Origin: a virus
Strand: one strand, 5' to 3'
Virus record (IMG/VR): IMGVR_UViG_3300014039_000007
Span: 1 to 55,901 of that record
Length of the DNA stretch: 55,901 nt
Shown: piece after piece, positions 3,207-55,901 of the stretch
How the letters are laid out: each line of letters begins with the position of its first letter
Numbering within the stretch: the stretch's first letter is position 1
Program-made: the position numbers and the translations under genes
The notes under the pieces: model-generated
Databases searched by the model: none
Told to the model about the DNA's origin: nothing
What the model saw: only the letters and a program-made list of their open reading frames with translations

Positions 3207-3402
3207 CATGGAATATGAAAAGGCAATAAAAGGAAAAAAGTTCATAGGATTGAATGGTAAATTATGTAGACATCATAAATATTGGTGCCGTCTGCACGAG
3301 ATATATCTATCTGAACAGGATGTTATAAAAAAGCATTGTAAAAATAAGTATACATTCGATATGATTAGCCGATACAGATGCGGAAATTTGGAGGAATTAT
3401 AA
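3196..3402 (+). CDS. hypothetical Cys/His-rich protein (68 aa)
   Basis: ORF track. Confidence 0.5.
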   Translation: MMDDMEYEKAIKGKKFIGLNGKLCRHHKYWCRLHEIYLSEQDVIKKHCKNKYTFDMISRYRCGNLEEL

Positions 3403-4421
3403 TGAGTAATCTTAATTTAATTATAAAAGACTTAAATAAAAAGATGAAGGTAGGAAATATTCAGTTAGGAGTTGATTTTCAGGAGGTACAGAAAATTCCA
3501 TTTTCATCCTGTCGTTTGAATTATATGACTTATGGTGGAATCCCGGTTGGAAGAATAGCAGAATTTTACGGTACTGACGGAAGTGGAAAGACAACAACCG
3601 CTATTGATGTAGCAGGAAATGCACAAAAGATGTTTCTTGATAAGAAAGTATTATTTGTGGATATAGAACACACCTTTGACCCAGTATGGGCGACAAAGCT
3701 GGGATTGAATTGTGATGATTTGTTGTATTTAGACCCTGACAGCATGGGTGCAGAAGAAGTATTTAATATTATAATAGACATAATAGACAGTGGAGAAATA
3801 AGCCTTTGTATATTAGATTCTATTGGAGCTATGGTATCTATGCAGGCGAATGAAAAGGAAATCGGTGAGAGAACATATGGTGGAATTAGTATGGCTTTAA
3901 CTGAATTTACTAAGAAAATAACCCCAGTATTAGCCAGAACACAGGCAGGCTTTATTGGCATAAATCAGGCAAGAGATGACATGAACAGTCCTTATGGTGG
4001 AACTACTACAACAGGTGGAAAGTGTTGGAGACATGGTTGCAGTACAAGGCTTGAATTTAGAAAAGGAAATTACATTGATGAAAAAGGAAATAATCTTTCA
4101 AGAGCTTGTGAAAACCCGGCTGGAAATATAGTCAATGTAGCTTTAATCAAGTCTAAGGTTGTTAGACTTGATAGAAAAGTAGGATTTTATACATTAAAAT
4201 ATCTTGAAGGAATTGACTATGTATCAGATGCAGTTGATGTAGCCATCAAGATGGGATTGGTTGCGCAAGGCGGAGCATGGTTCTCTTTAGTTGATGTAGA
4301 AACAGATGAAATATTAAGCAAATACCAGGGTAAATCCAAGCTAGTCGAGTATCTAAAGGAAAATGATAACTATGAAGATTTTTATTCAAAATTGGAGAAA
4401 TTATTAAACGAAGAATGTTAA
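3402..4421 (+). CDS. recA: RecA-family recombinase (RecA/UvsX/Sak4-like)
   Basis: Walker A GTDGSGKTT and Walker B LCILDSIG. GGAGG RBS precedes ATG 3402, which is in frame with track ORF 3378. Confidence 0.75.
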   Translation: MSNLNLIIKDLNKKMKVGNIQLGVDFQEVQKIPFSSCRLNYMTYGGIPVGRIAEFYGTDGSGKTTTAIDVAGNAQKMFLDKKVLFVDIEHTFDPVWATKLGLNCDDLLYLDPDSMGAEEVFNIIIDIIDSGEISLCILDSIGAMVSMQANEKEIGERTYGGISMALTEFTKKITPVLARTQAGFIGINQARDDMNSPYGGTTTTGGKCWRHGCSTRLEFRKGNYIDEKGNNLSRACENPAGNIVNVALIKSKVVRLDRKVGFYTLKYLEGIDYVSDAVDVAIKMGLVAQGGAWFSLVDVETDEILSKYQGKSKLVEYLKENDNYEDFYSKLEKLLNEEC

Positions 4422-4429
4422 TTATCGAC

Positions 4430-4466
4430 AAGTTATCCGCATTAAATTGTGGGTAACTTTTTGTTT
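4430..4466 (+). terminator. rho-independent terminator
   Basis: AAGTTATCC / GGGTAACTT stem (9 bp, one G-U) followed by TTTTGTTTATTTTT. Confidence 0.7.
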
Positions 4467-4482
4467 ATTTTTAAAAAATCAC

Positions 4483-4511
4483 TTGACATACATATTTGTA
4501 TGTGTTACAAT
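4483..4511 (+). promoter_or_regulatory. early promoter copy P1 (TTGACA-17-TACAAT, TG-extended, palindromic spacer)
   Basis: TTGACA 4483-4488, TACAAT 4506-4511, upstream A-tract. Confidence 0.75.
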
Positions 4512-4554
4512 ATACTTGTAAGTAAGAAATACATAATTTAAGGGGACAAAAAAC

Positions 4555-4731
4555 ATGAAGTTTAGATTTATCATGAATGGAGAATATGTTACAAGAAAGA
4601 CATTTGAAGATTGTTATAGTAAAGTAGAAACAAGAAGAATAATAAATGAATTAAAGAATGACCCTTGGGCAACAATTTATCTTAATGATGGAATGGATGA
4701 AGTTTTTGCTTATAATTTTTTTAATACATAG
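4555..4731 (+). CDS. small protein (58 aa), first gene after P1
   Basis: AAGGGG RBS. Product is MKFRFIMNGEYVTRKTFEDCYSKVETRRIINELKND... Confidence 0.5.
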   Translation: MKFRFIMNGEYVTRKTFEDCYSKVETRRIINELKNDPWATIYLNDGMDEVFAYNFFNT

Positions 4732-4751
4732 AAAGGCAAAAGGTGATTGAT

Positions 4752-5057
4752 ATGAAAATTTGGAATAGTAGAAATAGTAAATTTGAAAATGTGTCAGTTG
4801 GTGTGAGATGTATTGTTGCTCGATGTGCTTCGGGAAAATCTTATTTTGGCGAATTTGGAACAGTCACGAAAGAACTGAAAAATCATCTTGTTATAACAAC
4901 AGATTCAGGTTCAATTATTAAAGTAAATGATATGTTCAGACCTATTGGTAAATTTTCAGAATATTTTGCCTCTCTAAATATTGAAAATAGGGAAGATATG
5001 ATTACGGAGAGAGTATGTATTTGGAACAGTAAGAAGCAGACTTTTGATTATAAATAA
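4752..5057 (+). CDS. hypothetical protein (101 aa)
   Basis: AAAGGTG RBS 6 nt before ATG 4752, in frame with track ORF 4743. Confidence 0.55.
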   Translation: MKIWNSRNSKFENVSVGVRCIVARCASGKSYFGEFGTVTKELKNHLVITTDSGSIIKVNDMFRPIGKFSEYFASLNIENREDMITERVCIWNSKKQTFDYK

Positions 5058-6568: not shown

Positions 6569-7405
6569 ATGTATGGATATATTTATAAAACAACAAATTT
6601 ATTAAATGGAAAAATTTATATTGGACAGCATAAGGCAGAGACATATGATTTTTCTTACTATGGTAGTGGTAAAATATTAAAATTAGCTGTTGAAAAATAT
6701 GGTATTGATAATTTTTCAAATGAATTATTATGTGAATGTGATTCTAAGAATGATTTGGATAAAATGGAAAAGTATTTTATAAAAAAATATGATAGTAGAA
6801 ATCCATTAGTTGGTTATAACATATCATTCGGTGGTGATGGCGGAGATACTTTTACAGGTCTTCCTGATAAGGAAAAACAGGAAAGAATAAATAAGTTAAA
6901 AGTAAATGGGTATTTTTCAAAATTGACATACGAACAAAATAGAGATATGCACTTAAAGGGATGGGAGACAAGAAGAAAAAATGGGAATGATAAGTTCTCT
7001 GAATCAGCAAGAAAGAAGATGAGTGAATCACATAAAGGGTTAAAACCTACAAAGTCACAGATAAAAAAGATGTTAAAAACAAAGGGCGAATATCACCATT
7101 CAGCAGAGACAAAACAAAAAATAAGAAATTCAAATTTAGGTAAAAAGAAAAATTTAACAGACGAACAAAGAAATAAACTATCTGAAAGAGGAAAAAAATT
7201 AAAGGGGGTAAATAATCCATTTTATGGAAAACATCATTCAGAAGAAACGAAAAAAATTATAAGTGAAAAATGTGGTGATAATGCAAAAGACACTGTATGG
7301 GTGCATGATGATGTACGCTCATATCGAGTAAAAAAGAATGAACTAGAAAAATATATTAAAGACCTAGGATATGAATTAGGCAGAAAGAGGTGGAAAAATG
7401 GCTAG
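6569..7405 (+). CDS. GIY-YIG homing endonuclease with NUMOD3-like repeats (free-standing)
   Basis: YGYIYKTTNLLNGKIYIGQ, then repeated (S/H)xETKxKI motifs. AAGGAGG RBS. Own TTTACA-17-TATAAT promoter at 6517-6545. Confidence 0.85.
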   Translation: MYGYIYKTTNLLNGKIYIGQHKAETYDFSYYGSGKILKLAVEKYGIDNFSNELLCECDSKNDLDKMEKYFIKKYDSRNPLVGYNISFGGDGGDTFTGLPDKEKQERINKLKVNGYFSKLTYEQNRDMHLKGWETRRKNGNDKFSESARKKMSESHKGLKPTKSQIKKMLKTKGEYHHSAETKQKIRNSNLGKKKNLTDEQRNKLSERGKKLKGVNNPFYGKHHSEETKKIISEKCGDNAKDTVWVHDDVRSYRVKKNELEKYIKDLGYELGRKRWKNG

Positions 7406-40992: not shown

Positions 40993-42005
40993 ATGGATTT
41001 AATAGAATTATTGAATCAAGAACCATCAGTAATCCCAAAAAATGCTACAGTTTTGGATAATTTTGTAAAGGCATATTCAATTATAAACAGACCACAATAC
41101 AAGACTATTTTCTGCTCAATTTCAGGCGGAAGTGATAGTGATGTTATGATGGATATTATATACAAAGTAGATGTGAATAAGAAAGTAACCTATGTATGGT
41201 TTGATACAGGGCTTGAATATGAAGCTACAAAAAGACATATTGAATATCTGGAAAAGAAGTATAATGTAAAAATCATGAGAGAGAGAGAGCTATTAAGCCT
41301 ATTCCTACAACTTGCAAGGAATATGGTCAACCGTTTTTATCCAAGGATATCTCACATTATATAGAACGATTACAAAAGAAAAATTTTGATTTTAAGGATT
41401 ATACTTATGATTATATGTTGGAGCATTTTGGAAGGCACATTGCGGAGTGGTGGTGTAATTGCAAAGTGCTTGATAGATTTAATATAGAAAGAAATTTGTA
41501 TTTGAAAGAATTTTTAATTGCACATCCCCCAAAATTTAGAATATCAAATAAATGTTGTAAGTTTGCAAAGAAAGATGTTTCTAACTCACTTATTAAAAAG
41601 TATAATGTAGATTTAATGATTATTGGTGTAAGAAAGGCAGAAGGTGGAATAAGAGCTACAGTTTATGAAAATTGTTTTTCAGAAGAATTACATGGAGCCG
41701 CACAATATAGACCTTTATGGTGGTACAATAATGAGGATAAAAAAGATTATGAAGATTATTGTGGAATCGTTCATAGCGACTGCTATAATATATATGGCTT
41801 CAAGCGGACGGGATGTTGTTGCTGTCCTTATGGCTGGGTTCACAATGAATTATTAAAAGGGTTGGAAGCAATAAGAATAAATGAACCAAAACTATATAAA
41901 GCAGTAAATACTATATTCAAAGATAGTTATGAATACACAAAGCAATACTTACAGTTTAGAAAGGAAATGAAAGACAAAGAAAAAGGAAGGAAAAGATTGT
42001 TTTAA
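40993..42005 (+). pseudogene. PAPS reductase-family PP-loop protein, frame broken in a (GA)6 run
   Basis: SISGGSDSD PP-loop. After the GA run at 41277..41289 the sense continues in frame +2 (AIKPIPTTCKEYGQPFLSKDISHYIERLQKK... into track ORF 41415..42005, with a CCCC cluster). Confidence 0.7.
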
Positions 42006-43718: not shown

Positions 43719-43891
43719 AGCCGGGTATGACGGACTACCCGAGACCAAGTAATTAGTAAAAACAGTAAATGAACCCGGGATAGTTTACTTAGTATGAAAA
43801 TTACAGCTCCGATTATAGCTTGTATCAGTGAGGTGGTGGACTGGCTTGGTGCTAATGACGATTAGCAGGTAGTTGGTATGAGCTATATTAT

Positions 43892-43962
43892 AGCCCTTTA
43901 GCCTAATGGTAGGGTAACAGACTTTGATTCTGTTGGTGTGGGTTCGAACCCCACAAGGGCTG
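43892..43962 (+). tRNA. tRNA-Gln (anticodon UUG)
   Basis: Hand-folded cloverleaf. Acceptor AGCCCTT/AAGGGCT. Anticodon arm ACAGA-CTTTGAT-TCTGT. T-arm GTGGG-TTCGAAC-CCCAC. No encoded CCA. Confidence 0.8.
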
Positions 43963-44019
43963 TTTTCCTACTTCCCCGAGTAGGATATACTGAATGGGTT
44001 GTTAGGTTCTCATTCAGTC

Positions 44020-44089
44020 TGGAGTATAGTATAGATGGCGAGTGCGTGTACCAGCTGGCAAGGTGTAGGTTCGATTCCTACTACTCCAG
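44020..44089 (+). tRNA. tRNA-like element (70 nt), acceptor and T-arm canonical, no foldable anticodon arm
   Basis: Acceptor TGGAGTA/TACTCCA. T-arm GTAGG-TTCGATT-CCTAC. The interior contains the palindrome CCAGCTGG but no 5-bp/7-nt arm. Confidence 0.35.
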
Positions 44090-47356: not shown

Positions 47357-48076
47357 ATGATAGGAATTTATATTATCACAAATAAACAATCAGGAAAATT
47401 TTATATAGGTAAATCAAAAAACATAGAAGGTAGATTTGCACACCATAAAGCAGAATTAAGACATAATAATCATTATAATATTCATTTGCAACGAGCTTGG
47501 AATTTATATGGTGAGGAATCATTTGTATTCAGTGTTCTTGAAGAATGTAAAGAAGATGAATTAAACGATAAGGAAATTCATTGGATTAGTGAGTTTGGTG
47601 GTTATAAGAGTGAATTTATGTATAATCAGACAAAAGGTGGGGATGGATTAGCTTTATTTGGGGAAGATAATGGTATGTATGGAAAACATCATACACCAGA
47701 ATCTTTATTAAAAATGCATATTAAAAAAGCTGGTTCATCTTTAGGAAGTAAAAATCCAATGTATGGAAAACATCATACAATTAAAACAAAAAAGAAGATA
47801 AGTGATGCTAATAAAGGTAAGATATTATCCACAGAACAAAAGGAAAAAATTTCAAGAACATTAAAAGAAGGGTATTCTAAAGGAATTTATAAAGAAAAGC
47901 AACCAAGTAAATATACAGATGAATTTATGAAAGAATTAAGAGAAGAATATCTTAAATGTAAGTCTTTTAAGGAAGTTGCAAATAAATATAATATACCGTA
48001 TGAATGTTGTAGATGTGCAATTACATTTAATAGGACAAATGTATCAAATCAAAAATCATTGAAACGATATATTTGA
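47357..48076 (+). CDS. GIY-YIG homing endonuclease with NUMOD3-like repeats (free-standing)
   Basis: IGIYIITNKQSGKFYIGKS...RFAHH. MYGKHHT repeats. Confidence 0.85.
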   Translation: MIGIYIITNKQSGKFYIGKSKNIEGRFAHHKAELRHNNHYNIHLQRAWNLYGEESFVFSVLEECKEDELNDKEIHWISEFGGYKSEFMYNQTKGGDGLALFGEDNGMYGKHHTPESLLKMHIKKAGSSLGSKNPMYGKHHTIKTKKKISDANKGKILSTEQKEKISRTLKEGYSKGIYKEKQPSKYTDEFMKELREEYLKCKSFKEVANKYNIPYECCRCAITFNRTNVSNQKSLKRYI

Positions 48077-48138: not shown

Positions 48139-48167
48139 TTGCAATCTTCTTTTTTATGTGCTACAAT
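48139..48167 (+). promoter_or_regulatory. promoter (TTGCAA-17-TACAAT), diverged relative of the early promoter family
   Basis: TTGCAA 48139-44, TACAAT 48162-67. The leader shares AAGTTAAAGATAACA...AAAGGAGGATA with the P6 leader. Confidence 0.55.
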
Positions 48168-48213: not shown

Positions 48214-48714
48214 ATGAGTAGAGAAAAGTTAGAATCAATGAAAGGTGCAGAGTTAATTGCATACGCTGACAAGTTAGGAGTAAAGGTTAGTTGTAATAGG
48301 GAAAGAACAGGACTTAAGGAATCAAAAGCAAATGTTATTGATAAGATTTTAGCATTTGAGAAAGAACATTCTGCCAAAAATGAAAAGTTAGAAAATAAAA
48401 AGAATAATATTGACTTGATTCTTCCTGATATTATTGATTCTTTATCTGATTATATTCAGGTACCTTATAAGACAAATAGAAATTATATCACAATAAAGAC
48501 AAATACTGAAAAGCCAAAGAGACTTGCTGAGGTTGATGTTCTTTCCAAAAAGGTTACAGTATATATGAGAAAAAAAGTTGATAATTTACCTGAAGGAATT
48601 TCATTTCATAAATATGTAAATAATACTTTAGGAAATTGTTATCATATATCATATGATTGTGATTATATTGAGTGTATTAAGCTATTACTTAATGAACAGG
48701 AGAAAGGAGTATAA
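48214..48714 (+). CDS. hypothetical protein with N-terminal SAP/Rho-N (HeH)-like motif
   Basis: LESMKGAELIAYADKLGVKV. Confidence 0.45.
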   Translation: MSREKLESMKGAELIAYADKLGVKVSCNRERTGLKESKANVIDKILAFEKEHSAKNEKLENKKNNIDLILPDIIDSLSDYIQVPYKTNRNYITIKTNTEKPKRLAEVDVLSKKVTVYMRKKVDNLPEGISFHKYVNNTLGNCYHISYDCDYIECIKLLLNEQEKGV

Positions 48715-49629
48715 ATGGATCTATATTTTGCATCAAGTGGAAACAAAGATATGGAAATATTGCTTGAAACAAAGCATTGCCACAGACTGTTTACACAGCT
48801 TGAAAAATCATCTATAAAGCGTTGTATTGAAATGAAAACCAGGCATAATCCAGCAAAGTTATTTATAGATTCTGGCGCATTTACAGCATGGACGAAAGGA
48901 ATACAAATTGATGTAGATAAATATATTGATTATATAAATGGTCTTGATGATAAAATAACAATATGCGCTCAAGTTGATTGTATTCCGGGCACATTTGGTG
49001 GGGTAAGAACACAAAAAGAAATAGAAGAATCTCCTATTAAAAGTTGGGAAAATTATCTGTATATGAAAGATAAATTAAAATCTAGGGATAAATTGATTCC
49101 TGTATTTCATCAGGAGGAAAGTTTTGAGCATTTGAAAAAAATGCTTGAATATAGACATTCAGATGGTACACCAATAGCATATGTTGGTATATCACCTAGT
49201 AATGATAGGTCACAGTCAGATAAAGAAGATTTTATTGCAAGAAGTTTTTATATTATAAAACATAGTTCAAACCCTAATGTAAAAACTCACGCATTTGGAA
49301 TGACAAACTTATCAATATTAGAGAGGTATCCTTATACATCTGCTGACAGTACATCCTGGAAAATGTCAGCGGCATTTGGTAGCATAATGACAAGATTAGG
49401 AACAATAGTAATAAGTTCTGAACAATTAAAGGATAAAAAGCATATTGAATATATGCCAAAAAGTGTTAAAGATTATGTTAAGTCTGAATGCTTGAAATAT
49501 GATATTGATTATGATATGTTATACACTGATTTTTGCACAAGGGCAAAATTTAATATAAATTATCTTAAAGACTGGGCAGATAACTATGAGTATAAACCTG
49601 TCACAGTTCATAAGAAGTCATTATTCTAA
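48715..49629 (+). CDS. dpdA: DpdA-like DNA-guanine transglycosylase (TGT superfamily)
   Basis: Motif pattern LFIDSGAFTAWTKGIQIDVDKYIDYI ... THAFGMT ... YTSADSTSW recalled from phage DpdA proteins. Adjacent to yhhQ. Confidence 0.6.
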   Translation: MDLYFASSGNKDMEILLETKHCHRLFTQLEKSSIKRCIEMKTRHNPAKLFIDSGAFTAWTKGIQIDVDKYIDYINGLDDKITICAQVDCIPGTFGGVRTQKEIEESPIKSWENYLYMKDKLKSRDKLIPVFHQEESFEHLKKMLEYRHSDGTPIAYVGISPSNDRSQSDKEDFIARSFYIIKHSSNPNVKTHAFGMTNLSILERYPYTSADSTSWKMSAAFGSIMTRLGTIVISSEQLKDKKHIEYMPKSVKDYVKSECLKYDIDYDMLYTDFCTRAKFNINYLKDWADNYEYKPVTVHKKSLF

Positions 49630-49638
49630 ATTGGTTAT

Positions 49639-49676
49639 AAGGTGCTGTTTTGTAATCTTCTGACACCCAGCACCTT
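49639..49676 (+). promoter_or_regulatory. 9-bp hairpin with 20-nt loop in the yhhQ leader (riboswitch-like or terminator-like)
   Basis: AAGGTGCTG / CAGCACCTT. Loop CUUCU (49657-61) is complementary to SD AGGAG (49698-702). Confidence 0.4.
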
Positions 49677-49712
49677 CATAATAAATATTAAAAATAAAGG
49701 AGTGTTGTAAAA

Positions 49713-50348
49713 ATGAACAACAAAAAAGTATCAAGTATCTTATTAACACTATGCGTGGTATTTGTATCATGTATTATTATGAGTAATGTTTTAGCAAATG
49801 AAACTTTACAAGTGTACAAGTGGAGTTTAGATGCAGGCATATTTCTATTCCCTATAACTTATATATTATCTGATATTTTTTCAGAAGTATATGGTTATAG
49901 ATGGTCAAGACGTGTCACATGGATGGCAGTAACATTGAATTTAATATTTTCATTACTTATAATCTTGGCTTGTAAATTACCTCATCCTGTTTGGTTCGAC
50001 GGTTCACATTTTGAACTGGCATTATGTGGGTCATTTAAGATTGTTCTTGCAAGTGCTATTTCTTATCAATGCGGGGATTGGGTAAACGATATTATATTTA
50101 AGCATATGAAGAAAAATCATTCAGATTCAAAAGGGTTTATCATTAGAGCTATCTCATCATCATTAGGAGGAGAATGTGTTGATTCAACGCTATTTGTTTT
50201 AATAGCATTTTTAGGTACAATGCCGTTTTCTGAAATTTTTCCTATGATTATAATGAATATTGTTTGCAAGACGGGATATGAAATTATAATTTGTCCATTT
50301 ACAAATATCTTAATGAAAAAGATTAAAAAATTAGAGGGTATTGAATGA
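49713..50348 (+). CDS. yhhQ: YhhQ/VUT-family queuosine-precursor (preQ0/preQ1) transporter
   Basis: Polytopic membrane protein. FLFPITYILSDIFSEVYGYRWSRRVTWM matches the YhhQ signature. Confidence 0.8.
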   Translation: MNNKKVSSILLTLCVVFVSCIIMSNVLANETLQVYKWSLDAGIFLFPITYILSDIFSEVYGYRWSRRVTWMAVTLNLIFSLLIILACKLPHPVWFDGSHFELALCGSFKIVLASAISYQCGDWVNDIIFKHMKKNHSDSKGFIIRAISSSLGGECVDSTLFVLIAFLGTMPFSEIFPMIIMNIVCKTGYEIIICPFTNILMKKIKKLEGIE

Positions 50349-50632
50349 TGAAAATTTATATATCAGGTAAAATAACAGGAACAATAGATTATATACAAAG
50401 ATTTGAGAGAGCAGAAAAAGCTCTCTCAAAATATACAGTAATCAATCCAGCTAAAGTAAATGCACAACTTCTCACTGAAACAACGTGGGAAGAATATATG
50501 CAAATGTCAATGACTATGTTAAAAATGTGTAATGCTATTTATATGCTAAAAGGTTGGGAAGATAGTAAAGGCGCAAGAATAGAATATAATTATGCGATTG
50601 AGAATAATTATAAAATAATTTTTGAAAAATAA
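50345..50632 (+). CDS. DUF4406 / nucleoside 2-deoxyribosyltransferase-like protein
   Basis: MKIYISGKITG...MCNAIYMLKGWEDSKGARIEYNYA. ATGA overlap with yhhQ. Confidence 0.65.
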   Translation: MMKIYISGKITGTIDYIQRFERAEKALSKYTVINPAKVNAQLLTETTWEEYMQMSMTMLKMCNAIYMLKGWEDSKGARIEYNYAIENNYKIIFEK

Positions 50633-50650: not shown

Positions 50651-52042
50651 TTGAATTATGATGAATTTCTAAAAACAAAAATAGAGCAATTCAAGCCTTG
50701 CGGCTTTGATTGTGAACCATCAAACGAAAATCTATTTGATTTTCAAAGAGCTATTGTAAAGATAGCACTTAAAAGAGGAAAATCTGCATTGTTTCTTGAT
50801 ACAGGACTTGGTAAAACAATATGCCAGTTATCGTGGGCAGATGAAGTGTACAGACACACAGGAGGAAATGTACTTATACTTGCCCCACTTGCTGTATCTA
50901 TACAGACTAAAAGAGAAGGGGAAAAATTCGGGATTGATGTAAATATCTGTAGGTCGCAAGAAGATGTAAAAGACGGAATCAACATTACGAATTATGAAAT
51001 GCTAGACCATTTTAATGCTGATGAATTTGTTGGAGTTGTACTTGACGAAAGTTCAATACTTAAATCATATAGTGGAAAGATAAAGACTGGAATTATAGAT
51101 AAATTTGAGAATGTGCCTTATAAACTATCTTGTACAGCTACACCATCTCCAAACGATACAATGGAACTATTAAATCAAGCTGAGTTTTTAAATGTATTAA
51201 AATCACACGAAGCACTAGCTGTTTGGTTTGTTACTGACCAAACTGCAATGGGAGCATATAGATTAAAGTATCACGCTGAAGATGATTTTTGGACTTGGGT
51301 ATCAAGCTGGGCAGTTCTTTTAAAAAAGCCGTCAGATTTAGGATTTAATGATGATGGTTACGATTTACCTCCATTGCATGAGAAAGATGTTATAATTCCC
51401 GTATCCTTGAAGAGTGAGGAAAAGGGAAGATTGTTACGAAAAGTTGAAATGTCAGCAACAAACTTCTATAAGGAAAAGAAACTAATTACAGATGAAAGAA
51501 TAAAAAAGATTGCTGAAATAGCAAATAGTACAGATGAACAGTATCTAATATGGTGTGATACAAACGAAGAGAGTTCATTGTTACACAAAGCTATTGAGGG
51601 AAGTGTTGAGGTTAAGGGTTCAGATAAGCCCGAACACAAGGAGCAATCAAGTCTTGATTTTAAATCAGGAAAAATAAGAGTGCTTATATCAAAAGTATCT
51701 ATTTTTGGGTTCGGCTTGAATTTTCAGAATTGCACAAAATGTATTTTTTGCGGATTGAATTATTCATATGAAAAATACTATCAAGCAGTTAGGAGATTAT
51801 ACAGATTTGGACAGACAAAGGAAGTAACGGTGTATAGAGTTTTAGGCTCAACAGAAAGTCATATTCTTAATATATTGACTGACAAATATAGAAAGCAAGA
51901 GGATATGCAGGAGCATATGAACAAATGCACAAATAAACTTATACTTGACGAAATGAATGGCAATAGAAAATTCAAGTTGAGCGAACAAAATACGGAAAAT
52001 ATAAGTTTTCCTAGTTGGTTAAAGGAGGAAACATATGAATAG
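50651..52042 (+). CDS. SF2 (DEAD/SNF2-like) helicase coupled to the methyltransferase
   Basis: LDTGLGKT and VLDESS. TTG start after AAAGGAG. Overlaps the next gene by 8 nt. Confidence 0.75.
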   Translation: MNYDEFLKTKIEQFKPCGFDCEPSNENLFDFQRAIVKIALKRGKSALFLDTGLGKTICQLSWADEVYRHTGGNVLILAPLAVSIQTKREGEKFGIDVNICRSQEDVKDGINITNYEMLDHFNADEFVGVVLDESSILKSYSGKIKTGIIDKFENVPYKLSCTATPSPNDTMELLNQAEFLNVLKSHEALAVWFVTDQTAMGAYRLKYHAEDDFWTWVSSWAVLLKKPSDLGFNDDGYDLPPLHEKDVIIPVSLKSEEKGRLLRKVEMSATNFYKEKKLITDERIKKIAEIANSTDEQYLIWCDTNEESSLLHKAIEGSVEVKGSDKPEHKEQSSLDFKSGKIRVLISKVSIFGFGLNFQNCTKCIFCGLNYSYEKYYQAVRRLYRFGQTKEVTVYRVLGSTESHILNILTDKYRKQEDMQEHMNKCTNKLILDEMNGNRKFKLSEQNTENISFPSWLKEETYE

Positions 52043-52949
52043 TGTAGTTAAAAATGATTATGCAATCTATAATGGAGATTGCGTAGAGTTGATGAAAACA
52101 ATGCCAGATGAAAGTATCGACTTTTCCGTATTTTCGCCACCATTCGTAAATCTGTATATTTATAGTGATGATTTACGAGATATGGGAAATTGTAAAGATA
52201 GTGGAGAGTTCTTTCAGCAAATGCAGTTTATGACAGAACAGTTGCACAGAATATTAAGGACAGGCAGGCTTGTAGCAGTTCATTGCAAGAATACAGTCAA
52301 ATATAAAAATCGTGACGGAGTTGCAGGCTGGTACGATTTTAGAGGAGATTTAATTCGACATTTTGAAAACAACGGCTTTCAGTATCATTCAGAGGTGTGC
52401 ATCTGGACTGACCCTGTAAGAGAAATGCAGAAAACAAAAACACAGAGATTGTTATATTGTCAGTTGCAGAGAGATGCAAGTCATACGGGAATTGGTATGC
52501 CAGAATATCTTGTAATTTTTAGAAAGTGGGGAGATGAAAGTAAAGAAATCCCTATTAAGCATTATAAGAATGAAAAGCAGATGGAAGACGATAATGGAGA
52601 ACCACTACAATTAGTTGACCTTGAAACTTGGCAGAGATATGCAAGCCCTGTTTGGTTCGATATTAAACGTACAGACGTATTAAGTGGAAAGATGGCTAGG
52701 GATGAAAAAGATGAAAAGCATATTTGCCCATTACAATTAGAGGTTATTCAGAGAGCGGTTGAGTTGTGGACTAATCCGGGAGAAGTAGTATTTACCCCAT
52801 TTATGGGTATTGGTTCAGAAGTATATCAGAGCTTGAAACTTCACAGAAGAGCCATAGGAGTTGAATTAAAAGAAAGCTATTTTAATCAAGCGGCTGAAAA
52901 TTGCAAAATGGCAATATCAGATAGAGTAGAAAGAAAGAAATTATTTTAA
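52035..52949 (+). CDS. DNA methyltransferase (N4/N6, beta-class order)
   Basis: FSPPF catalytic motif near the N-terminus. SAM motif TPFMGIGSE near the C-terminus. Confidence 0.8.
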   Translation: MNSVVKNDYAIYNGDCVELMKTMPDESIDFSVFSPPFVNLYIYSDDLRDMGNCKDSGEFFQQMQFMTEQLHRILRTGRLVAVHCKNTVKYKNRDGVAGWYDFRGDLIRHFENNGFQYHSEVCIWTDPVREMQKTKTQRLLYCQLQRDASHTGIGMPEYLVIFRKWGDESKEIPIKHYKNEKQMEDDNGEPLQLVDLETWQRYASPVWFDIKRTDVLSGKMARDEKDEKHICPLQLEVIQRAVELWTNPGEVVFTPFMGIGSEVYQSLKLHRRAIGVELKESYFNQAAENCKMAISDRVERKKLF

Positions 52950-54117: not shown

Positions 54118-54156
54118 GTATGCACCTTATAGAAATATAGGGTGCATATTTTTTTG
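54118..54156 (+). terminator. rho-independent terminator
   Basis: ATGCACC / GGTGCAT stem, extendable, followed by TTTTTTT. Confidence 0.8.
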
Positions 54157-54175: not shown

Positions 54176-54204
54176 TTGACATCTATATTTGTATGTGTTA
54201 CAAT
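54176..54204 (+). promoter_or_regulatory. early promoter copy P6
   Basis: TTGACA 54176-81, TACAAT 54199-204. Confidence 0.75.
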
Positions 54205-55606: not shown

Positions 55607-55901
55607 TATATATAGGTATTGACCCGGGAAAGAATGGAGGCATTGCATTTATTAGTGATTCTTTTGATACTCCACTTGTATATCCATTTTCAGAAGAAGT
55701 TTTAATTAAAGAATTAAACGCTACTTATAGAGATTATGACATGAAGTGTGTGCTGGAAAAAGTAAATGCTATGCCTGGACAGGGAGTTGTATCAATGTTT
55801 AATTTCGGTCAGAATTTCGGTTTTATTCAAGGTGTATTAAAAGCATATAGAATACCGTTTGAATTAGTATCGCCTCAGAAGTGGAAAAAGGAATTTAGTG
55901 T
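55603..55901 (+). CDS. RuvC-like Holliday junction resolvase, N-terminal part (continues at 87..231 after removing the overlap)
   Basis: ATG 55603 (ATGA overlap). MIYIGIDPGKNGG. In frame with nt 1. Confidence 0.8.
   Translation, partial: MIYIGIDPGKNGGIAFISDSFDTPLVYPFSEEVLIKELNATYRDYDMKCVLEKVNAMPGQGVVSMFNFGQNFGFIQGVLKAYRIPFELVSPQKWKKEFS

Follow-up and report, generated by a model that had tools for sequence, protein, structure and literature searches.

A DpdA transglycosylase gene paired with a YhhQ-family transporter gene in a closed gut phage genome without preQ0/preQ1 biosynthesis genes

How does a phage that encodes a DNA-guanine transglycosylase, and none of the genes for making a 7-deazaguanine base, obtain its substrate? 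According to published work, the signature of 7-deazaguanine modification of DNA is DpdA (PMC10516641). The question is raised by a stretch of 55,901 nucleotides, hereafter the window, in which an initial annotation had recognized a DpdA-like transglycosylase gene, a YhhQ-type transporter gene and a DUF4406 gene, and had proposed that the phage relies on host-made or imported precursor.

A DpdA-transporter gene pair in a closed phage genome

Positions 1-86 of the window are identical to positions 55816-55901, and the window is therefore a circularly closed, complete genome of approximately 55.8 kb. The genome is that of a tailed, Dp-1-like phage, and it comes from metagenomes of livestock gut (pig, bovine and sheep samples). 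A megablast search with the module region against deposited phages returned no match. Comparison of TerL placed the phage broadly among phages of gut Bacillota, e.g. Blautia and Clostridium phages. The bacterial relatives of the transporter were rejected as a guide to the host, as the nearest are only 41-47% identical to it and come from several phyla, gut Bacillota among them.

The three open reading frames of the initial annotation were recovered at 48715-49629, 49713-50348 and 50345-50632, all on the + strand. The first encodes a protein of 304 aa that has no match in Pfam or NCBIfam. It matches phrog_887, 'queuine tRNA-ribosyltransferase' (E=8e-52), and it aligns over its full length with gp7 of Streptococcus phage Dp-1 (41% identity, 310 aa, E=1e-71) and with a homologue from Bacillus phage Flasso at 45.5% identity. 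A search of PDB sequences with an HMM profile of the protein found no TGT and gave noise matches to an anti-CRISPR protein only, which made a fold search necessary. The AlphaFold2 model has a pLDDT of 92.3 and a pTM of 0.88, and its top 49 Foldseek matches in the PDB are TGTs of bacterial, archaeal and eukaryotic origin (probability 1.00, TM 0.5-0.6). The protein is thus predicted to adopt the TGT-type (beta/alpha)8 barrel fold. Searches against TGT/DpdA profiles had been put forward in the initial annotation as the check on its DpdA identity, and the phrog_887 match, the similarity to gp7 and the fold matches all agree with that identity.

The motifs by which the gene had been recognized, FIDSGAF, HAFGMT and SADSTSW, contain D52, G195 and D211, which are invariant across 30 homologues, as is D88 in QVDCIPG. 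None of the 53 columns that are invariant among these homologues (46-82% identity) is changed in window DpdA. An hhalign comparison of the DpdA profile with E. coli Tgt placed FIDSGAF on 'LTDSGGF', an alignment of low probability that covers the DSG motif only. D88 and D211 may be the counterparts of the substrate-binding and nucleophile aspartates of TGTs, a likeness drawn from motif resemblance and not from structural superposition. Based on sequence and predicted fold, we assign 48715-49629 to the DpdA family of DNA-guanine transglycosylases, of the Dp-1 gp7 type.

The second gene (49713-50348, 211 aa) encodes a protein with several hydrophobic segments that matches Pfam Vut_1 over profile positions 1-150 of 152 (129.3 bits, cutoff 27.2, 2e-37). 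It also passes the cutoff of the NCBIfam equivalog TIGR00697, 'queuosine precursor transporter' (80 bits, cutoff 50.95, 2e-22), so that the family searches proposed for it bear out the YhhQ/VUT identity. The protein falls below the cutoff of the E. coli-type equivalog PRK11212 (45.8 bits against 252) and shares 23% identity with E. coli YhhQ in an alignment of 148 aa, and is hence a member of the family and not an orthologue of the E. coli protein. Streptococcus virus MS1 has a Vut_1 gene upstream of DpdA, and to this the window gene is 40% identical. By family we classify it as a YhhQ/QPTR (COG1738) queuosine-precursor transporter. Sequence does not tell which substrate a member of this family carries, and the substrate range varies: preQ0/preQ1 in E. 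coli, queuine in Chlamydia (PMC11130926).

The de novo preQ0/preQ1 pathway is missing from the whole closed genome. A Pfam scan of the entire + strand proteome found no FolE, QueD, QueE, QueC, QueF or QueT, and the best E-value in a six-frame tblastn search with FolE, QueC, QueD, QueE, QueF and QueT of Dp-1 and Flasso was 0.08. The absence reported in the initial annotation for FolE, QueD, QueE and QueC is therefore upheld. Its view of the sole PP-loop gene also stands: Pfam places this gene in the PAPS_reduct type and not with QueC, and it is frameshifted, the (AG)n run at 41277-41289 having one AG too many.

Source of the 7-deazaguanine base

The pair lies in the replication module, between the genes for PolA (DNA polymerase A) and DnaN (sliding clamp). 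We compared 72 related loci that have a complete PolA-DnaN slot. Each locus covers +/-10 kb only, and biosynthesis genes may therefore lie elsewhere in the genomes of these relatives; the set also contains many near-duplicates. Within these limits, biosynthesis genes stand beside DpdA in 41 of the 72 slots, eight of which also have YhhQ. A transporter without biosynthesis genes accompanies DpdA in the other slots, YhhQ in 28/72 and QueT in 3/72, and DpdA with neither biosynthesis gene nor transporter occurs in 0/72. The partners include QueC, QueD, QueE and FolE (with or without QueF), DpdA::QueF fusions, YhhQ and QueT; SDR or GNAT genes accompany YhhQ-DpdA in sister lineages. One locus (L032) reads DpdA-QueF-YhhQ, with no QueCDE between DpdA and DnaN, a layout consistent with import of preQ0 followed by its reduction to preQ1. 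The pair of the window itself recurs in L005 and L006, with identities of 92-93% for DpdA and 91% for YhhQ.

The transporter-only lineages are scattered over the DpdA tree, which carries no bootstrap support. Making and importing the base thus appear, from gene content, to have been exchanged repeatedly at a single locus in this lineage, and DpdA with a transporter and no biosynthesis genes is by the same comparison a common arrangement among the relatives of the window phage. The slot is shared by two non-homologous transporter families, YhhQ and QueT, and this speaks for precursor import as the selected function. The finding of a supply gene beside DpdA in all 72 slots suggests that host pools alone are insufficient. 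This make-or-import pattern, as far as gene content can speak, supports a salvage reading, and together with the missing pathway it supports the proposed reliance on host-made or imported precursor. The 72-slot comparison could also help with annotation and with choosing experimental models.

The reading that we favor, with moderate confidence, is that DpdA and YhhQ salvage an external 7-deazaguanine base into phage DNA and so blunt restriction, with DUF4406 standing outside the unit. YhhQ would raise the intracellular pool of the free base during infection. The imported base would be preQ1 and/or preQ0, scavenged from the gut surroundings or lost from bacteria nearby. After replication, DpdA would exchange guanine in double-stranded DNA for this base, placing it at a fraction of the phage-DNA guanines, and the modified DNA would blunt the host restriction enzymes. 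Gut Bacillota are mostly users of queuosine precursors that lack QueDECF (PMC11130926), which, together with the gut origin of the samples, counts in favor of import. The variable substrates of YhhQ/QPTR proteins and the missed PRK11212 cutoff count against salvage. If the salvage reading is true, anti-restriction modification would be environment-dependent, working only where preQ0/preQ1 can be had, a gut community with queuosine producers being one such setting, and phage host range and defence evasion would be tied to micronutrient cross-feeding.

A somewhat unlikely alternative is that DpdA uses preQ0/preQ1 which the host has made or salvaged for tRNA queuosine, YhhQ being a dispensable booster. 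Such host supply for DpdA-only phages was proposed by Hutinet et al. in 2019 (PMC6884629). Escherichia phage CAjan offers a parallel: DpdA is experimentally required for dPreQ0 in its DNA, deletion of yhhQ leaves modification at the wild-type level under laboratory conditions, and delta-folE and delta-queC phages retain approximately 1/12 of the modification level by drawing on host preQ0. The yhhQ deletion counts against salvage as well, although CAjan makes its own preQ0. YhhQ also stands alongside a full pathway in the eight related loci and in Streptococcus virus MS1, and can thus be an add-on. Against host supply stand the absence of any complete slot in which DpdA has no supply gene and the lack of QueDECF that is typical of gut Bacillota.

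It is improbable, in our view, that the module has little or no activity, with no or trace 7-deazaguanine in the DNA and with genes that are left over from a full cassette of an ancestor and are now drifting. Two 'DpdA-only' phages that have been tested would fit such decay and count against salvage: Mycobacterium phage Orion has no 7-deazaguanine and Salmonella phage 7-11 has a trace only, 50 dADG per 10^6 nt (PMC6884629). The catalogued DpdA+YhhQ phage CDKM15 has a 'TGT' gene that is only a 78-aa C-terminal remnant of DpdA, and the frameshifted PAPS reductase is another decayed gene in the window genome. However, the dpdA and yhhQ reading frames of the window are both intact, DpdA keeps every one of the invariant columns, and the pair, besides being kept in L005/L006, recurs in many diverged clades.

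We consider it quite improbable that the base which the transporter-only phages salvage and insert into their DNA is neither preQ0 nor preQ1. Queuine would be a candidate, if the window YhhQ is of the queuine-importing kind, as would a derivative that the SDR or GNAT genes of the sister lineages produce. Were this so, the DNA modification would be one not yet described, and restriction resistance of gut phages would hinge on a micronutrient cross-fed by the microbiota.

A tRNA-directed takeover, in which enzyme and transporter boost queuosine-type tRNA modification for phage translation and leave DNA unmodified, is very improbable: the PHROGs and GenBank label 'queuine tRNA-ribosyltransferase' and the fold matches to tRNA TGTs speak for it, but the DNA of Dp-1, the phage of the nearest characterised homologue, contains dPreQ1 (PMC6884629), DpdA is regarded as the signature of a DNA modification, the Pfam and NCBIfam TGT models miss the window protein, so far has it diverged from tRNA TGTs, and the phage tRNA found by ARAGORN is tRNA-Gln(UUG), which is not a GUN queuosine substrate.

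Transcription unit and the DUF4406 gene

A degenerate copy of a promoter-like repeat (family D4; TTGCAA-N17-TACAAT with TG) lies upstream of the pair at 48139-48167 on the + strand. It scored 9/12 in the promoter scan, with an extended -10 TG, and may mark the beginning of the transcription unit to which the module belongs. ORF166 follows (48214-48714, + strand) and has no family match in Pfam or PHROGs; its stop codon abuts the start of dpdA (TAA-ATG). Homologues of ORF166 are also found upstream of a methylase cassette in L022 and L023, both of which lack DpdA, and ORF166 is not specific to the DpdA-YhhQ module. The unit probably ends at a terminator-like hairpin with a T-run 3' of dnaN (54118-54149, + strand), after which a strong promoter copy lies at 54176; repeat family D2 is represented in this region.

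The 83-nt spacer between dpdA and yhhQ contains a hairpin (49639-49676, + strand) with a 9-bp stem, AAGGTGCTG/CAGCACCTT. Its minimum free energy is -16.1 kcal/mol (z=-1.7, not significant), and it is kept only in the near-identical L005/L006, a comparison that offers no covariation. An Rfam search upstream of yhhQ gave no match at the gathering cutoff, neither to a preQ1 riboswitch nor to another family, and only spurious snoRNA matches at E<=10. The significance of this hairpin is doubtful.

The third gene (50345-50632, 95 aa) is a DUF4406 member (Pfam, 90.1 bits, cutoff 22, 1.3e-25) whose ATGA overlap with yhhQ was confirmed. It is followed on the + strand by genes for a SNF2/DEAD-type helicase (50651-52042; Pfam Helicase_C/ResIII/SNF2, phrog_62) and an N6/N4 DNA methyltransferase (52035-52949; Pfam N6_N4_Mtase, 6e-19), both of which synteny identifies as conserved partners of DUF4406. 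The methyltransferase is a second DNA-modification function, independent of DpdA. The predicted DUF4406 fold has NDT and DNPH1 as its top Foldseek matches (TM ~0.7), and across homologues S7, G8 and E80 are invariant and Y5 nearly so. This Tyr, Ser-Gly loop and Glu resemble by motif the active site of the NDT/DNPH1 (Rcl) superfamily, and E80 may be the nucleophile. Members of that superfamily have 130-160 aa, in contrast to the 95 aa of the window protein, whose putative activity is drawn from sequence and model. The genes conserved beside it encode a helicase and DNA methylases; nucleotide-salvage or deazaguanine genes are not among them. In the literature we found incidental mentions of DUF4406 only, and no functional study.

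The initial annotation had suggested that DUF4406 is a coupled accessory of the deazaguanine module, acting on the base or nucleotide pool. The ATGA overlap, the NDT/DNPH1 fold with its conserved Glu and the co-linearity with DpdA-YhhQ in L005/L006 are in line with this suggestion, yet synteny largely refutes it and we give it very little credence. Homologues of 83-84% identity are found in L016-18 and L022-23, sister phages without DpdA or YhhQ, and the SNF2-type helicase and N6/N4 methylase always adjoin them. L019-21 have a copy of 60% identity 3' of a helicase-methylase fusion. The start/stop coupling is present in L019-23 regardless of which gene is upstream, be it a C5 methylase or the helicase-methylase fusion. 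DUF4406 occurs together with DpdA-YhhQ only in L005/L006, whereas L016-L023 have it without either, and the slot is free of DUF4406 in 26 DpdA+YhhQ(+/-SDR) loci. Going by this gene order, DUF4406 is part of a conserved DUF4406-helicase-methylase block and not of the DpdA-YhhQ unit.

Comparison with known systems

Bacterial YhhQ/QPTR proteins share with the window protein the full-length Vut_1 domain and membership of TIGR00697. The window protein differs in being phage-encoded and in being paired with a transglycosylase that, by family, modifies DNA and not tRNA. CAjan, like the window phage, combines DpdA and a phage YhhQ in one cluster. Unlike the window phage, it encodes FolE, QueD, QueE and QueC, belongs to an unrelated phage group and infects a Gram-negative host.

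The closest counterparts are the clusters of Dp-1 and MS1, which come from the same phage type and occupy the same position next to DnaN. Window DpdA is 41% identical to that of Dp-1 and 36% identical to that of MS1, and all three phages have a queuosine-precursor transporter directly beside DpdA: QueT in Dp-1, YhhQ in MS1 and YhhQ in the window. In the virion DNA of Dp-1, dPreQ1 amounts to 3389 per 10^6 nt (PMC6884629). Both Dp-1 and MS1 have the full de novo pathway (QueC, QueD, QueE and FolE), to which Dp-1 adds a QueF-like gene, and all of these are missing from the window phage. ORF166 and the DUF4406-helicase-methylase block are extra in the window region.

In lacking FolE, QueD, QueE and QueC, the window phage resembles the 'DpdA-only' group of Hutinet et al. 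2019, for which use of host preQ0 or uptake of exogenous precursor was proposed (PMC6884629). The same study noted phage YhhQ homologues, and its Supplementary Data 1 lists Clostridium phage CDKM15 and halophage eHP-6 with DpdA and YhhQ only (PMC6884629). The doubt about novelty voiced in the initial annotation was thus justified, and with the concept proposed in 2019 the window phage counts as an example, if a well-supported one, rather than as a discovery. CDKM15 is ruled out as a cultured precedent by its truncated DpdA, and eHP-6 is a partial genome, whereas the window presents an intact DpdA-YhhQ pair in a closed genome. Unlike these single entries, the lineage of the window phage displays the DpdA+YhhQ-only pattern systematically.

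The dpdA and yhhQ genes

Three genes proposed from the sequence alone were confirmed on the + strand: dpdA (48715-49629, 304 aa), yhhQ (49713-50348, 211 aa, Vut_1) and a DUF4406 gene (50345-50632, 95 aa), including the ATGA through which the yhhQ stop codon overlaps the DUF4406 start codon. The TAA stop of the preceding ORF166 (48214-48714) directly abuts the dpdA ATG. The dpdA product matched PHROG 887 ('queuine tRNA-ribosyltransferase', E=8e-52) and had no match in Pfam or NCBIfam. Among cultured phages, tblastn ranked Bacillus phage Flasso (45.5% identity) first, ahead of Streptococcus phages Dp-1 (41%) and MS1 (36%); many DpdA genes of Escherichia, Pseudomonas, Vibrio and Mycobacterium phages came next, at ~30% identity. 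A DpdA sequence profile searched against solved structures reached no TGT, and the hhalign alignment with E. coli Tgt was limited to the FIDSGAF/LTDSGGF motif. The top 49 PDB matches of the AlphaFold2 model (pLDDT 92.3) were all tRNA-guanine transglycosylases, so the predicted fold lies within the TGT fold, not outside it. The PHROG match, the phage homologues and the fold agree with the DpdA-like transglycosylase named in the initial annotation.

The yhhQ product is a full-length Vut_1 protein (Pfam, 129 bits) and scored above the cutoff of the NCBIfam equivalog TIGR00697 'queuosine precursor transporter', bearing out its proposed placement among YhhQ-family membrane proteins. Against PRK11212, the E. 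coli-type model, its score was below the cutoff; its identity to E. coli YhhQ is 23%. The substrate of such transporters is not predictable from sequence (PMC11130926). The dpdA-yhhQ spacer holds a 9-bp hairpin (49639-49676), lacking a T-run, that is kept in two related loci (L005/L006); it had no Rfam match and was not significant against shuffled sequences, and the Rfam search returned neither a preQ1 riboswitch nor any other Rfam family.

Six or more promoter-like sites of the genome share a repeated TTGACA-N17-TACAAT element. Copies of the ~56-nt repeat lie at 4475, 10842, 33829, 35830, 43300 and 54168, and a degenerate one precedes ORF166 at 48139; a further ~25-45 nt downstream are common to four copies. 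The element is probably this phage's family of early/middle promoters. A terminator-like hairpin at 54118 lies 3' of dnaN and is followed by a strong promoter copy at 54176. By these signals and the copy at 48139, the module probably shares one transcription unit with ORF166, DUF4406, the helicase and methylase genes and dnaN. Elsewhere, a tRNA-Gln(UUG) (43891-43963) was called by both ARAGORN and Rfam, and a second tRNA-like element (44020-44089) by Rfam only, at 40 bits.

Precursor supply in the genome and across the slot

Positions 1-86 are identical to 55816-55901, which indicates a circularly closed assembly and a complete genome of ~55.8 kb; its genes include full packaging, head, tail, lysis and replication sets. 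No GTP cyclohydrolase I, PTPS/QueD, QueE-type radical SAM, QueC or QueF turned up when all + strand ORFs of 60 aa or more were scanned with Pfam. When FolE, QueC, QueD, QueE, QueF and QueT of Dp-1 and Flasso were used as six-frame tblastn queries, the best E was 0.08; DpdA was recovered in the same search at E=1e-71 and 6e-85. With both searches blank and the assembly closed, the suspected absence of preQ0 biosynthesis genes holds. The sole PP-loop gene (40993-42005) is, as had been thought, of PAPS-reductase type rather than QueC, and frameshifted by a single surplus AG within an (AG)n tract (41277-41289). Deleting 2 nt gives a single 336-aa ORF, and the gene is intact in L006 (345 aa). Three origins are possible for this break: a genuine mutation, slippage-prone phase variation, or an error of assembly.

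The phage is one of a Dp-1-like group that is abundant in gut metagenomes of pig, bovine and sheep origin as well as in IMG/VR; in this group, dpdA lies in a slot between the DNA polymerase A gene (polA) and dnaN. We classified ~95 related loci, spanning only +/-10 kb and including many near-duplicates, with one common query set; slot counts rest on the 72 with both borders present. QueC/D/E and FolE stood beside DpdA without a transporter in 26 of these (12 with QueF, separate or DpdA-fused, 9 with two tandem DpdA and 5 with neither), while 7 had QueD/E and FolE without recognisable QueC, 8 had YhhQ in addition to the full pathway, 28 had YhhQ only (13 alone, 13 with an SDR gene, 2 with DUF4406) and 3 had QueT only. 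DpdA with neither biosynthesis nor transporter occurred in none of the 72 complete slots. Locus L032, whose contig stops short of the PolA side, reads DpdA-QueF-YhhQ-DnaN, with no QueCDE from DpdA to DnaN. In an approximate, unbootstrapped neighbour-joining tree of DpdA, transporter-only lineages did not group together but fell into several clades, with biosynthesis-carrying lineages between them. Both transporter families are known only for queuosine-precursor uptake (PMC11130926). That two unrelated transporter families replace the biosynthetic cassette at one site is the strongest available argument that the selected function is 7-deazaguanine base supply for DpdA.

Other features of these loci were also recorded. 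The SDR gene (adh_short, ~214 aa; ~640-670 nt) adjoins YhhQ and DpdA in 13 loci that have no QueCDE/QueF (L001/L002, L034-L037, L039-L043, L050, L066), and its product may act on an imported precursor. The seven QueC-less loci (L048, L057, L060, L061, L065, L085, L086) suggest a pathway ending at CDG or a divergent enzyme in an unassigned 0.9-1.5 kb gap. The tandem DpdA genes (L071, L075-L078, L080-L083) are diverged paralogues that follow the full QueC/D/E/FolE cassette. DpdA::QueF fusions of ~520 aa (protein P0044, L012 6620-8206, and ~10 similar) are followed by QueC-QueD-QueE-FolE. The window carries two GIY-YIG/NUMOD3 homing endonuclease genes (6569-7405 and 47357-48076), polA is split by a GIY-YIG gene in L019, and in several others (e.g. 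L005, L009) an uncharacterised insert divides the PolA match into two pieces. These genes and breaks suggest that homing is active around the replication module.

Proposed function of the module and the place of DUF4406

We propose that YhhQ would let the infected cell take up preQ1 and/or preQ0, that after replication DpdA would swap a fraction of the phage-DNA guanines for the imported base, and that this base would shield the DNA from restriction. Taken as a whole, this is the account towards which we lean. preQ1 is a plausible base, preQ0 also being possible, since Dp-1 DNA contains dPreQ1 (PMC6884629), QueF occurs in many clade members and is DpdA-fused in some, and substrate-side motifs are invariant across QueF-carrying and transporter-only members. 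Against the account, modification was absent or at trace level in the two DpdA-only phages assayed in 2019 (PMC6884629), yhhQ of phage CAjan is dispensable, and YhhQ and TerL relatives did not identify a host. That the host supplies the precursor, with YhhQ as a booster, is unlikely in our judgement. Less likely still is a silent module, against which D52, D88, D211 and the HAFGMT segment of DpdA are still invariant in 30 homologues (46-82% identity); a tRNA-directed role is hardly credible.

While the idea of salvage by DpdA and YhhQ stood, the accessory role that the initial annotation suggested for DUF4406 did not, and we now consider it very improbable. The closest DUF4406 homologues beyond L005/L006, at 83-84% identity, are from sister phages in which the order is PolA-x-DUF4406-helicase-N6/N4 methylase-DnaN and neither DpdA nor YhhQ is present (L016-18). 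In L022/L023, a SAM-methyltransferase and C5 DNA methylase cassette (3212-5001) replaces the window's DpdA-YhhQ (48715-50348) between PolA and DUF4406, whose start there overlaps the methylase stop. Homologues at 60% identity come after a helicase-methylase fusion, which they also overlap. DUF4406 was found in none of the slots of 26 DpdA+YhhQ(+/-SDR) loci. These contexts place the gene with the helicase/methylase block; judged by synteny, its translational coupling to yhhQ is incidental, and the PolA-DUF4406 interval seems to be a place where alternative DNA-modification systems are exchanged. The DUF4406 model (pLDDT 96) matched nucleoside 2'-deoxyribosyltransferase and DNPH1 (TM ~0.7), and Tyr5, Ser7-Gly8 and Glu80 are conserved. 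The model points to an N-glycosidase or deoxyribosyl-transferase with nucleosides/nucleotides as substrates; a DNPH1-like sanitising of modified dNMPs is conceivable, as speculation by analogy.

Relation to known systems

DpdA without preQ0 genes characterises a group of 76 phages defined by Hutinet et al. 2019 (PMC6884629), who proposed that such phages draw on host preQ0 or take up exogenous precursor, and whose Supplementary Data 1 gives Clostridium phage CDKM15 and halophage eHP-6 as having DpdA and YhhQ only (PMC6884629). CDKM15 gp78 (L142 5765-6001), 'queuine tRNA-ribosyltransferase' in RefSeq, proved to be only a 78-aa C-terminal DpdA remnant that carries an FYSVDSSSW motif and is followed by an intact YhhQ, so this example may be non-functional. 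A 2023 survey of DpdA subfamilies mentions neither transporters nor DUF4406 (PMC10516641). In Dp-1 it is QueT that adjoins DpdA, whereas the window has YhhQ there; in MS1 a Vut_1 gene adjoins DpdA, as in the window. The proposed salvage by DpdA and YhhQ is of a kind already known and hypothesised, and the window is a well-preserved member. Our analysis adds a make-or-import pattern that runs through the lineage, along with repeated swapping of cassettes at one locus.
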